In this document: positions 57,001-61,670 of the stretch, piece by piece | How positions within the stretch are numbered: position 1 is the first letter of the stretch | Layout of the letters: every line of letters starts with the position of its first letter | Sequence record: AF125520 | Direction: 5' to 3' (one strand) | Source: Escherichia phage 933W | DNA length: 61,670 bases | Program-made: the position numbers

Positions 57001-60000
57001 TGACTATATCTCCGGAGGGACAGGGCGCTTCATTTCCAAAACCACGGATGCGGCGGTGAAATCGCTGAATGGTATTGATATACCGGAACAGCAGGTGCCC
57101 TTCCTGGGGAAAATTTCGGGGGAGGTGATGCCGTATGCAGACCAGCAGAAGATGTACGACCGGATGACAGAGATTGCGCAGTATCACGCAGAGCTGAAGA
57201 GTCTGACCGGTGCAGAAAGAACGGCGTTCATTGACGAGAACAACGGAAAATTGTCGATGAACGGGCTTATGCAGGATACCCGGAAGAGACTGAAGGATTT
57301 GCGTAAACAGCGTGATGCCATTTACGCCGACAGTACTCTCAGTCTGGCGCAACAGTCGGCGATGGTGAAATCGGTAGAGCGGGATATGAAAATTGCCGTG
57401 GATCGGTTTAACCGCGAGTACAACAAAAAAGTGGGAGTGGATTAACAGAAATGGCCCCGTACGGAAGTGCGGGGCTGATTAAGAAATAAACACTCATTGA
57501 CCTGTAATAACCGGAGCTATTAACATATAGTCAGAAGAGCATTTCATGTGATACAGAGAGCCGATTTATGTTTAATGAAGAAAAAGTTGCGCAAATGGCA
57601 GCGTATTTGCTGAAAAAGCATGGCGGATCTATGCGTTTCATTAAGCTGAAGCAGCAACGGTAATGGCGAATAGCATTTATGAGCAAAATAATCTTGATAT
57701 GTTATTAGGCGATCTGATGTAACCGGGATGATGTTCACCCCTTATCGCCGGGGAACAATACCGGCAATCAGAATTGCGGATGGAACTATTCAGGCCCACG
57801 ATGATATCGATGAGGAGTTTTTTCAGCCAGTATTGGATGGCTTTCTTATATCCAAATATACGCCATTTGACATCCTCCACGCCCTGAAGGACGGGGTTTT
57901 ACAGCGCACCGGATAAGATTCGGTGTTTTGTTGAAAAATACTGTGATAACAAACAGAAAACCCGTCAGTAAGACGGGCTTAGCAAGCTGGGACGGTTACT
58001 TTAATAATTTCAGTGCCTTTACATCCACTTCAACACTGCTCAGGTCTTTATCAATTTCACCCTCAATTCTTACTTTGTCTTTCGGAGAAACATTCTGACC
58101 GGCCCATATGCTGTCATCGATATCCGTGACAATTGTCCCGCTATTGTCACGAAACTCATAACGTTCATCACCCACTTTTTTAACGATGCTCCCTTCAAGG
58201 ATAACCCATGCATCATCCTTCAGTTCTTTTGCCTGCGCTACTGTTGAACGCTCTGCTTCAGGCCCTTGGAAACCGCCCTGCTGTGCAAAAGCGCCAAAAG
58301 ACACACCAGAAATAAGTGCTGCAATCAATACCTTTTTCATTCATAGTCCTCTTTCAGAGATGAACATTCAAACAGCATTTTCAGTATGGTAAAGCGCGGG
58401 TGCGTTGAGGATGCCTGACACATCAGAGGTGGCGGGAGATTACTCCCCCGCTTGGTCTCTTACTTCTCAGATTCGTAGTCTACGAAGACAGCGACCTCCG
58501 TCTGACCGGTTCGGATTCGCACCTCGCAGAGGTCTTTCCTCGTTACCAGTGCCGTCACTATGACGGTTAAACAGATGACGATCAGGGCGATTAACATCGC
58601 CTTTTGCTGCTTCATAGCCTGCTTCTCCTTGCCTTTCGGCACGTAAGAGGCTAACCTACATGTGTTCAGCATGGATTGAGCCTCAGATTAATGTTAAGCG
58701 TCTTGCCGGACGCGTAATGTTAACTGGGGCTTTTCTCTATCTGCCGTTGGTGTTCATGCCCGAGGCAGATAGCCTCAAGCACCCGCAGCAATTCTACTTA
58801 ACTCTCCTTTTCCCGCAAACCGTTTTTATCTCCAGCGACAAATCGAATACACAACCAGCACCACCGCCATTACTGTTCCTACATTTGCGAATGCTTCAGG
58901 CCAGGTCATTGATTCACCTTCTGCTCAATATTTTTAAGGTCATTTTCCGCATACAGTATTGCAGTTCTTGCTGCCCGCAACCGTGCTTTGGTGTTCTTTT
59001 CTTCACGCTCGAGGCTGGCAACAGATTCTCGGAGCTGATCGTGTCTGTTATGAAGCTGTCTAATCTCTCTCACCACAGCCTCACCATCGTTCGCACACCG
59101 CAGAACATACTGAAAAGGGTCCACAACACATCCGCACTGCAAGCACAGGATAACGTGATCCTGTTCATGAACCTCAATGGCCCGATGCTTACAGCTCTGT
59201 TGTGTGTAGTTTTTTCTGCCAGTTACTGTAATGTTCAGCAGCTTCTCTTCATCGCGCTTTGGCTGCACCAGTGTGATGATATTATCGCCTTCATTTTCCA
59301 TCAGTTCACCTCCTGCGGCGGTTCTGGTAGCGGCATCCAGTGTGACGGTTTCCACGACGCACCAGGAATTATCCACCCATCATTAGCGTCAGGATGCCCC
59401 GGGATGTAAGTCGCCCACTTCATTCGCCAGTCACCTTTCCTGTCAAACTCCACGGCAACAAGAACGGCTGTTTTGGTATCCGGCATTCGCTCACTACAAC
59501 TTATCCAACCATCCGGAGTTACCGGAGAGTTGCCAGACAGCGCATTCTGCAACCGTTCCAGCTTAACGTATTCCTGAACCCTGTTTCCGTCGCACGCCTG
59601 AAGCCATTGCTCAGCCTTTTGCGCATCAGTGTGAAAGGCACAAGTGCGACCGTCATCAAATTGCATTTCGTAGAGGTTAGCAATCTGTTCAAACTGCGTG
59701 TGTGGCAACTTGTAAGTTTGGCTTACGAGTTCGGCTTCCAGTTCTGCTATGCGCTTCTCTGATGCTTCAAGTAACGCCTGCTTATCGCGTAGCGCTTCTT
59801 CCAGTTCAGCAACATGGCATTCACTATCAATAAGGTTGTTCTGTGCTGCTCCCAGCTCCACTCTCAGCTTCCCAACCGTAAGCGCAATCTCCTCGTTCTC
59901 CTGGTCGCGGCGTTTGATGTATTGCTGGTTTCTTTCCTGTTCATCCAGCAGTGCCAGCACGGTAGCCGGGTTAGCCTCTGCTATGAATTCAGCGTTTGCA

Positions 60001-61670
60001 TAAGCCTGATCATCTGATTCAATCAGGCAGTTAACATGACATTCCGCAATCACGCCACCGGGTTCTCCTTTCCATTTTTGGCAAACAAAAACTCCTGTTA
60101 AATTGCCGTGCTGGTTAACAGATGTATGCCCTACGATGTAGCTTCCTTTAGTTGCTTTCTCTGCCTTTTCACGCAGTGCCTGATAATTAATTTCGCTCAC
60201 TTCGAACCTCTCTGTTTACTGATAAGCTCCAGATCCTCCTGGCAACTTGCACAAGTCCGACAACCCTGAACGGCCAGGCGTCTTCGCTCATCTATGGGAT
60301 CGCCACACTCGCAACAATGAGTAGCAGATGGGGCATTACTATCGGATTTGTATTTTTGCAGGGAGAGATTGCGCTGCAATTCTTCGATTTCAGCGGCGTT
60401 GTCGATGATATCTGCCATTTTCCTTTCCTTCAGGCATGAAAAAAGGAGCCGAAGCTCCTTTGGTTTTAGAATTCGAATTGCCTTGCCCGCAGGCTTTTCA
60501 GCATTGGTCTGGCCCGCTGAACTACGAAACTCGACTGGTCAAGCCGTGCCGCCTCTCTCAGTAGCACATCTCTGTTCTTCGTCACCATGTAGATGGTCTC
60601 AAACGCAATGTCATACAGCTTGTTCGTGTATGAGGAGTTCAGCTCTTTCATGATCGGATACAGGTGTTTGCTGAGGTCCTGGGCTTTTTCCATCCAGAGT
60701 TGCATGTAGCAGAGGAGGATGATTTCCTCGTCTGTGAATTGTTGCTGTGGTTCTGCTTGTGCCGACTGCATGTTGCGAAGTTTCTTTTCGCACTCGATGA
60801 AGTATCTGCGTATCTGTCGGCCTTTTTCGTTACGCTCTACCATCGCCGTTTCTTTGGCTGTATCGAGGGTAAGGTGGTAGTCTTTTTTCCCTCGCCCATA
60901 ACCTATTTCCCGTTTCTGGGAAATAGCTATATAGTCCTGATTTTCAACGAATCCGTACTCTTCAATACGTTCTGTAATCCACGATGCAAAGCGTTTACCT
61001 ACTCCAAGAAAAGTATGTAAATCACGGGCATTAACGAGAAGAGTGGTTTCGTTGGCGATAGTGCCGTTGAATACGGGGATGCGTTGACTGGTCATGATGA
61101 CCTCCTTATTTGTTTAGTTTATAACCGCCAGTTAGTAGCTGGCGGTCGGGTGTCAACTGAGCCAAATAAGAAGCTCTGGGCATATTCCCCTTGCGGGTGT
61201 TGTATTACGCCTCTCCACCCGACCTTTGTACGGATGTAACTATGCCAAATTGCAGGCATAAAAAAGCCGCAAAGCTATCGGGTGCGGAGACCGCTTATTT
61301 GTTCAGTGCGGTCAGTATGCGATAGCTCTGGAGGATTTGTCAATCAGCGGAATATTGATGAACGGGTAACGGTAAATGCCTCATCCAGAAAATTAACGCA
61401 AATTCGCATCGCAAACTTGCGTTAATTATCTGAAATATCAAGTTAAATCCCCTTAAATGTTTGGGGCACTATTGGGGCAAAATGTGGTTGTTTGGGGCAC
61501 TATTGGGGCAAAATGTGGTTGTTTGGGGCATATTTGGGGCAAAAAAGAACGTATAAAGAACGGTGTAAAATTGATTTCTTCATGGTCAAAATGAGGTGTA
61601 ACAGATTGAAAAATATATGCTCTTGGACGATCTTCGGTAATTCTGTGTTTTTAATGCTTCATGGTTTCAA

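Follow-up and report, generated by a model that had tools for sequence, protein, structure and literature searches.

The closest described relatives of the genes considered here, which lie in a direct repeat of Escherichia phage 933W, are Orf73 of bacteriophage lambda and TraR of the F plasmid. Lambda Orf73 binds RNA polymerase (RNAP), requires D3 and D6 of its DxxDxA motif, slows host growth and raises phage yield, and both it and TraR have been shown to inhibit rrnB P1 and to activate amino-acid promoters without guanosine tetraphosphate (ppGpp) (PMC9239242). Further hallmarks of action on RNAP are an ExxRK-type motif, which contacts beta' Si3, and an acidic residue in the C-terminal helix (PMC8614690). 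In Shiga toxin (Stx) phages, genes of the orf73 area are duplicated in full or in part, and 933W possesses two genes for Orf73 sequences, orf73 and L0141 (PMC8614690). The adjacent gene in both lambda and 933W is of the ea22 type, and Ea22 is reported to favor lysogeny in both lambda and Stx phages (PMC7093339, PMC10834534). The repeat that carries these genes is annotated in AP004402 and NC_004914 as 'arrangement cde', with region II on the right and region IV on the left; more generally, the 'arrangement cde/cfe' of these Stx phage records (AP004402, AP005153/4, NC_004914) denotes this repeat, with its copies likewise placed on the two sides of the attachment site (att) and int. The 580-nucleotide (nt) 'cde' unit corresponds to 59750-60329 and 4426-5005 of the 933W sequence analysed here (record AF125520; the window hereafter, meaning the whole stretch of 61,670 nt), with no structural difference. 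The duplication and the Orf73 paralogue pair are thus already documented, and represent ordinary lambdoid mosaicism and not a new system. What our analysis adds is that the near-identity of the two copies probably stems from a conversion tract within a paralogue that is old and has been kept by selection, and that recombination between the repeats appears able to delete the core of the prophage.

The window is a 933W-type Stx2-converting phage (Traversvirus) in its prophage form, and the region around the right copy (59300-61100) is a 99.9% match to Stx2 converting phage I (AP004402), Stx2a_F403, EDL933-Stx (CP111102) and others. Both ends of the window (its first 2135 nt and its final base) can be aligned with those of an element integrated at wrbA in an E. 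coli chromosome, and the att core of AP004402 maps onto its last bases; based on these alignments and the position of int we read the window as running from attL to attR. The two repeat copies are consequently about 6.3 kb apart on the circular phage, across attP-int, and 55.3 kb apart in the prophage, where they stand as direct repeats. The initial annotation had paired the right copy with the left one, and this is borne out by an ungapped alignment of the two (Table 1). In a blastn self-comparison they are 97.6% identical over 588 nt with zero gaps (59742-60329 against 4418-5005), and, apart from the collagen-like tail-fibre repeats, the window contains no other long direct repeat. This identity is unevenly distributed: in 30-nt windows it is 100% over 446 nt (4541-4986 and 59865-60310), about 93% in the left shoulder (8 mismatches in 4426-4540), and down to about 40-70%, with the frame kept, in the right part (4987-5094). 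Each copy encodes, on the minus strand, a 73-amino-acid (aa) zf-dskA_traR open reading frame (ORF) followed by an Ead/Ea22-like ORF, the GTG start of which overlaps the stop of the TraR-like ORF (GTGA). All of these ORFs are intact. As had been claimed for the right copy, its genes are undamaged (the alignment of the copies shows zero frameshifts between them in the window) and have their own putative ribosome-binding sites, with Shine-Dalgarno-like sequences ahead of both, that of the TraR-like gene being GAAGGAAAGGA at 60421-60431.

Several lines of evidence suggest that the TraR-like genes of both copies encode RNAP-directed regulators. Both proteins score above the gathering cutoff of PF01258 (zf-dskA_traR; 36.1 bits for the right and 35.8 bits for the left copy, cutoff 24.9), and both match phrog_54 'DksA-like zinc-finger protein' (right copy, E=1e-24). 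The left protein is identical to lambda Orf73 at 71 of its 73 residues, differing by 2 substitutions, while the right protein, of equal length, is 79% identical to Orf73. The left gene also has the lambdoid exo-xis region around it, with exo, bet and homologues of orf60a/63/61. The right protein is identical to the left one over residues 31-73, which include the zinc site, the ExxRL motif and the C-terminal helix, and the 15 positions at which they differ all fall within residues 4-30. The DxxDxA motif is present in both at residues 3-8 (MADIIDNA in the right and MADLIDSA in the left copy), aligned with D3, D6 and A8 of TraR; the four cysteines of the C4 zinc site (CxxC-x17-CxxC; C35/C38/C56/C59) are invariant with respect to TraR, and the proteins share its length of 73 aa and its single N-terminal helix. 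The stretch E44-R45-R46-R47-L48, the same in both copies, forms an ExxRL motif as in lambda Orf73, and the acidic residues E61, D62 and E64 are likewise present in both. The proposal of two TraR/DksA-type paralogs in one phage thus stands, as both retain the residues needed for action on RNAP; furthermore, the TraR-like 73-aa ORF has every motif intact in all relatives examined, including 933W-type, Min27 and Sakai-type phages. In light of the work on lambda Orf73, the RNAP function of the left copy can by analogy be regarded as essentially established, and for the right copy we infer, on what we consider solid grounds, that it too acts on RNAP. Its N-terminal helix, which bears the DxxDxA motif, would enter the RNAP secondary channel like those of TraR and lambda Orf73, and the protein would reprogram host transcription by turning ribosomal promoters down and amino-acid promoters up.

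The right copy nevertheless differs from its described relatives in some respects. With F-plasmid TraR (PDB 5W1S, 6N57) it shares the character of a 73-aa, single-helix, DksA-like secondary-channel factor, with D3, D6, A8, the four cysteines and the E..RR residues aligned, but the two are only 28% identical, and TraR is encoded by a plasmid transfer operon, not a phage accessory region. With lambda Orf73 it shares DxxDxA, the C4 site, ExxRL and the C-terminal helix, as well as an ea22-type gene next to it with a GTG start overlapping the stop codon. In contrast to lambda orf73, it lies in the b region beside antA and attR and not between orf61 and ea22 of the exo-xis region, and its residues 4-30, comprising helix and linker, represent another allele.

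The second gene of the repeat had been taken for a DUF551-like one, so that the whole was described as a 'DUF551-like/TraR-like module'. The TraR-like part of this description holds, but the DUF551 domain lies outside the repeat, to its left (about 59310-59510), and the proper second part of the repeat is the N-terminal domain of Ea22. Only the first ~150 codons of the 299-aa right ORF fall in the repeat. PF13935 (Ead_Ea22) matches this protein with 122.9 bits (residues 2-155) and its left counterpart with 122.5 bits, both above the cutoff of 27, and PF04448 (DUF551) matches residues 231-296 of the right protein with 76 bits. The 299-aa protein has its N-terminal Ead/Ea22 domain and coiled coil in common with lambda Ea22 and P22 EaA. 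The right protein differs from lambda Ea22 in ending in DUF551 in place of the lambda-type C-terminal domain, while the left copy keeps the lambda-like C-terminus, with the ending AGIRIKRGE. The C-terminus of the 299-aa protein is also paralogous to that of the separate DUF551 gene at the left end of the window, the two being matched at the DNA level only over short stretches of the latter (2419-2457 and 2600-2657). Searches of the PDB returned no informative relative of the 299-aa protein, and NCBIfam had no model for it. The 3' end of its gene is overlapped by 76 nt by a 156-aa ORF (58906-59376, minus strand; phrog_1621) with CxxC pairs and a coiled coil.

The uneven identity of the two copies becomes interpretable when the right cassette ('cfe') of the Sakai-type phage Stx2-II (NC_004914) is taken as a reference and compared with the left type ('cde'). 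Relative to the left type, the Stx2-II right cassette carries scattered substitutions throughout, and its TraR-like and Ea22-like genes are separated by an additional DUF4752 gene of 285 nt; its Ea22-like gene is split into ORFs of 80 aa and 219 aa by a 1-nt deletion in the N-domain (locus NC_004914 2447-2710), and its TraR-like gene is intact, with many changes that are mostly synonymous. We classified the 429 alignment columns at which the left type (L-type) and the Stx2-II right type (R-type) differ. Along these sites the right copy of the window shows 36 R-type columns, then 303 L-type columns (31 substitutions and 272 indel columns), and then about 85 R-type columns, with no intermixing; its flanks are identical to the diverged Stx2-II right copy and its core is identical to the left copy. 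We take this pattern to delimit a tract of gene conversion (Table 1). There are several sites at which the Stx2-II right copy has the lambda state, and the L-type copies together with the window's right core have the alternative one. T, G and G at alignment columns 310, 843 and 867 are shared by both cores of the window and the Stx2-II left copy, and are absent from two other L-type cores and, at the 2 alignable sites, from lambda, in what is a small sample.

The substitution rates are in keeping with this. Codons 34-73 of the window's two TraR-like genes differ by a single synonymous change, but between the Stx2-II right and left TraR genes the same codons have a synonymous divergence (dS) of 0.95 and a nonsynonymous divergence (dN) of 0.09, and synonymous sites in codons 1-33 are saturated. 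Judged from these values, the paralogy is old and the right TraR gene is under purifying selection, with a dN/dS of about 0.1 in the unconverted copy. The suggestion that aligning the two copies would date the duplication therefore proves misleading: the near-identity reflects a conversion tract over an old paralogue pair, and the duplication is undatable from the window copies. We consider it highly probable that the right copy is a paralogue of long standing, its middle part since replaced with sequence from the left copy of the same or a sibling phage, and that it forms a cassette for an RNAP regulator that can take part in recombination. In this scenario a right-hand paralogue of the Sakai type would already have been present, and 359-446 nt from the resident left copy, or from that of a sibling phage, would have replaced its middle by homologous recombination or gene conversion. 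This replacement would have removed DUF4752, repaired the frame of the Ea22-like gene and created the 299-aa ORF joining the Ea22 N-domain to DUF551, and would also have left the two TraR-like genes with hardly any difference in codons 34-73.

Since direct repeats bracketing 55 kb of prophage could recombine and thereby delete the prophage core, we searched 5426 complete E. coli genomes with the predicted junction of a crossover between the left and right copies (left flank, core and right flank) as query. None of these genomes contained the chimeric junction of the exact 933W type (full length, at 99% identity or more), and the only version present was the Sakai-type 'cfe' junction from a relative. 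Two of the four high-coverage matches to the junction were rejected as remnants, being other prophages in which the order Ant-TraR-Ea22 is native. The bovine E. coli strains OkiPb01680 and OkiPb01700 each carry a 6.1-kb element at wrbA-ymdF, which runs from int and xis through several small genes and an Ea22-like gene with a frameshift to DUF4752, TraR, Ant and, last, the right attachment end. The left 2.1 kb of this element is 99.9% identical to positions 1-2135 of the window, and its right arm aligns to 60197-61670, through the last base, at 87.6%. It is L-type up to window coordinate 4439 and from 4469 equals the Stx2-II right copy, the switch taking place within 30 nt. As far as its sequence goes, this remnant is exactly what a single crossover between left and right copies would leave of a Sakai-type prophage at wrbA once the interior is lost; in formal terms, the reverse reaction could also use it as a substrate. 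Neither the remnant nor a repeat-mediated deletion is described in the literature searched, including work on wrbA occupancy and stx-negative O157 (PMC7175801, PMC8309913). With somewhat less than even confidence we posit that crossover between the ~0.6-kb repeats is a natural route by which wrbA Stx prophages may lose their 55-kb core, including stx2, leaving a 6-kb int-xis...ea22/TraR'-antA remnant as in OkiPb01680 and OkiPb01700, that such a remnant could be a homology landing pad for an int-less core, and, separately, that the TraR paralogues might each be produced in a different state of the genome (as prophage or as circle) or act differently on promoters.

Several observations weigh against one or another part of this interpretation. 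With respect to function, both TraR-like proteins miss the cutoff of TIGR02419 (C4_traR_proteo; 59.7), the right copy scoring 56.6 bits and the left 54.8 bits; this cutoff is evidently too strict for the Orf73 clade, since the left copy, 97% identical to the validated lambda Orf73, also falls below it. Furthermore, 15 of the 27 positions in residues 4-30 of the right protein differ from Orf73, and because of this divergence its affinity for RNAP or its promoter specificity could differ or be lost. With respect to conversion, its direction rests on the 3 shared variants and parsimony, and the L-type core is widespread in other prophages, so that the donor could be another phage. With respect to expression, the terminator-like hairpin between antA and the right TraR-like gene has a folding energy of -12.8 kcal/mol for a 46-nt stretch and is not significantly more stable than shuffled sequence (z = -1.5), and the promoter-like site upstream of antA is a consensus match only, of a kind no commoner in the region than in shuffles. 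Finally, the remnant derives from a relative (its antA-attR arm being only 87.6% identical to the window) and not from 933W itself, and it is rare, being seen in two probably clonal genomes among the 5426.

Among the alternatives, an import of the right core from a different co-resident lambdoid phage with an L-type core, and not from the phage's own left copy, is unlikely without being negligible. L-type cores only a few substitutions away occur in unrelated prophages (OkiPb01717, UTAK-1), the TraR of the P22-like prophage of OkiPb01717 likewise combines an R-type N-terminus with an L-type C-terminus next to Ant, and there are many lambdoid prophages per O157 strain. However, the window cores are identical over the full 446 nt, and the 3 variants common to Traversvirus left copies are lacking in the other L-type cores examined; we regard the resident or sibling left copy as the more economical choice of donor.

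Comparably improbable, in our view, is that the right TraR-like gene is carried as a passenger, silent or in decay and without function, with only the exo-xis copy being of consequence. A passenger would fit the terminator-like hairpin just upstream of the gene and the frameshifts of the neighboring Ea22-like gene in Sakai-type phages and in Min27, where the lesion lies in the linker (Min27 locus 4220-4903) and the adjacent TraR-like gene is intact. The persistence of the 73-aa ORF with all functional motifs in every relative examined, the dN/dS of about 0.1 in the unconverted right copy and the gene's own Shine-Dalgarno-like sequence all speak for a functional gene instead. The hairpins ahead of both TraR-like genes were missed by a consensus terminator scan, and were read directly and then folded; the analogous hairpin of the left copy, at ~5150-5172, is significantly more stable than shuffled sequence (z = -3.5). 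Expression of the right cassette might be driven by a local promoter upstream of antA, for which the promoter-like site at that place is a candidate (Table 1), or, in the circular genome only, by N-antiterminated read-through from pL across int and attP. In lambda, pL transcription continues across att into the b region, and it is by analogy with this that we propose read-through of the right cassette. The 933W cassette genes receive no mention in Riley et al. 2012 (PMC3342100), and Fogg et al. 2011 (PMC3064807) concerns another ant gene, near Q in phi24B, with another integrase arrangement, and contains nothing on 933W antA.

We give very little credence to a recent segmental duplication of exo-xis orf73-ea22 within the phage, in which case the divergence of the copies would date a single event. 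The 446-nt identical core and the zero indels between the copies are what such an event would leave, but it does not account for an identity that drops sharply outside the 100% core, to about 93% across the left shoulder and to 40-70% in the right part, nor for right flanks that equal the Stx2-II right copy, itself diverged from the left type throughout and in possession of an extra gene. The saturation of synonymous sites in codons 1-33, and the occurrence of the right-type N-terminal allele with antA as a coherent haplotype in other prophages, argue against it as well. An artefact of assembly or a collapsed duplication can be practically dismissed as the source of the repeat, since dozens of phages and complete genomes that were sequenced independently, EDL933 assemblies among them, have the same two-copy layout.

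Regarding the source of the old right-hand paralogue, the junction of the right-specific N-terminal allele with antA was recovered in 47 phage records and, among those listed, is always in the b region of Traversvirus-type Stx phages. Other lambdoid and P22-like prophages have the genes Ant-TraR-(DUF4752)-Ea22-DUF551 side by side as part of their pL early-left operon. This makes it appear that the right cassette came from a different phage lineage, in which it was an early-left module, and reached its place beyond attP by recombination; the lambdoid/P22-like prophages of NZ_AP042706 and NZ_CP144926 represent a likely source lineage. In E. coli UTAK-1 (NZ_CP157165, locus 5136-9961), a prophage integrated at wrbA carries a gene of the antA family in the interval from xis to ea22; as this gene sits within the exo-xis block, accessory genes appear to be freely shuffled around att.

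The surroundings of the right copy agree with the proposed setting among b-region accessory genes, Hok/gef, YgiW-like and AntA proteins all being confirmed by Pfam. The cassette lies ~1.25 kb from attR, downstream of the antA-like gene and co-oriented with the left copy, and every gene from antA through the YgiW-like one points the same way as int and the pL operon (Table 1). The hok/mok-sok type I toxin-antitoxin locus is complete (58460-58784, minus strand). Directly upstream of the antA start codon there is a match to Rfam sRNA-Xcc1 (RF02221; 61136-61224, minus strand) with 69.1 bits against a gathering threshold of 53. Between antA and attR, near the attP arm, we observed a 47-nt imperfect palindrome (61386-61432), adjoined by the tandem 'arrangement gg; region III' repeats of AP004402 at ~61458-61527; the palindrome and these repeats may be binding sites for a recombinase or an accessory factor. 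Elsewhere in the window, the collagen-like (Gly-X-Y coding) family of direct repeats occupies 38974-39647, presumably within a tail-fibre gene.

Table 1. Features of the repeat copies, their surroundings and related loci; positions refer to the window unless an accession is given.
Feature	Position	Strand	Basis or remark
Integrase ORF	29-1363	minus	
Separate left-end DUF551 gene (933W L0065)	2410-3033	minus	PF04448, 83.6 bits; PMC8614690
Left Ea22-like ORF, 257 aa	4103-4876	minus	
Left repeat copy, exo-xis region	4426-5094	minus	contains orf73 (4873-5094) and, of ea22 (4103-4876), the 5' part
Left TraR-like gene, orf73, 73 aa	4873-5094	minus	Pfam PF01258
Terminator-like site	57958-57980	minus	beyond the YgiW-like gene
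YgiW/BOF gene	57996-58340	minus	Pfam
hok/gef (hok/mok)	58460-58672	minus	Pfam HOK_GEF, 79.8 bits
sok RNA	58610-58784	minus	Rfam sok, 113.5 bits
Ead/Ea22 N-domain, coiled-coil and DUF551 protein, P22 EaA-like, 299 aa	59301-60200	minus	Pfam
Right repeat copy	59750-60418	minus	partner 4426-5094, ungapped, offset 55324
Putative gene-conversion tract	maximal 59865-60310 (446 nt), minimal 59938-60296 (359 nt)	minus	informative-site pattern
Right TraR/Orf73-like gene (933W L0141), 73 aa	60197-60418	minus	Pfam PF01258, phrog_54, alignment
Terminator-like hairpin GGAGC-TTCG-GCTCC followed by T6	60439-60461	minus	between antA and the TraR-like gene
AntA/P22_AR_C antirepressor-like gene	60466-61095	minus	PF08346 (95.2 bits), PF10548, phrog_377; upstream neighbor
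Sigma-70 promoter-like site TTGACA-18-CATACT	61314-61343	minus	10/12 matches; upstream of antA
Native Ant-TraR-(DUF4752)-Ea22-DUF551 loci	NZ_AP042706 locus 9001-10660; NZ_CP144926 locus 7002-8932		
wrbA/ymdF remnant	NZ_AP042506 (OkiPb01680) locus 5327-11471; same in NZ_AP042594		

TraR/Orf73 proteins let mobile elements impose a stringent-response-like program on the host without ppGpp. A Stx phage with two TraR-type genes, of which one may not depend on pL in the prophage, could thereby affect both host physiology and the development of the toxin phage. Owing to gene conversion, the repeat copies are unusable as a molecular clock, and the repeat can furthermore confuse short-read assemblies and the typing of Stx phages by polymerase chain reaction. 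As a route for homologous recombination, the repeat pair may lead to the loss of stx2 with wrbA left 'occupied' by a small remnant, which would bear on assays of insertion-site occupancy.

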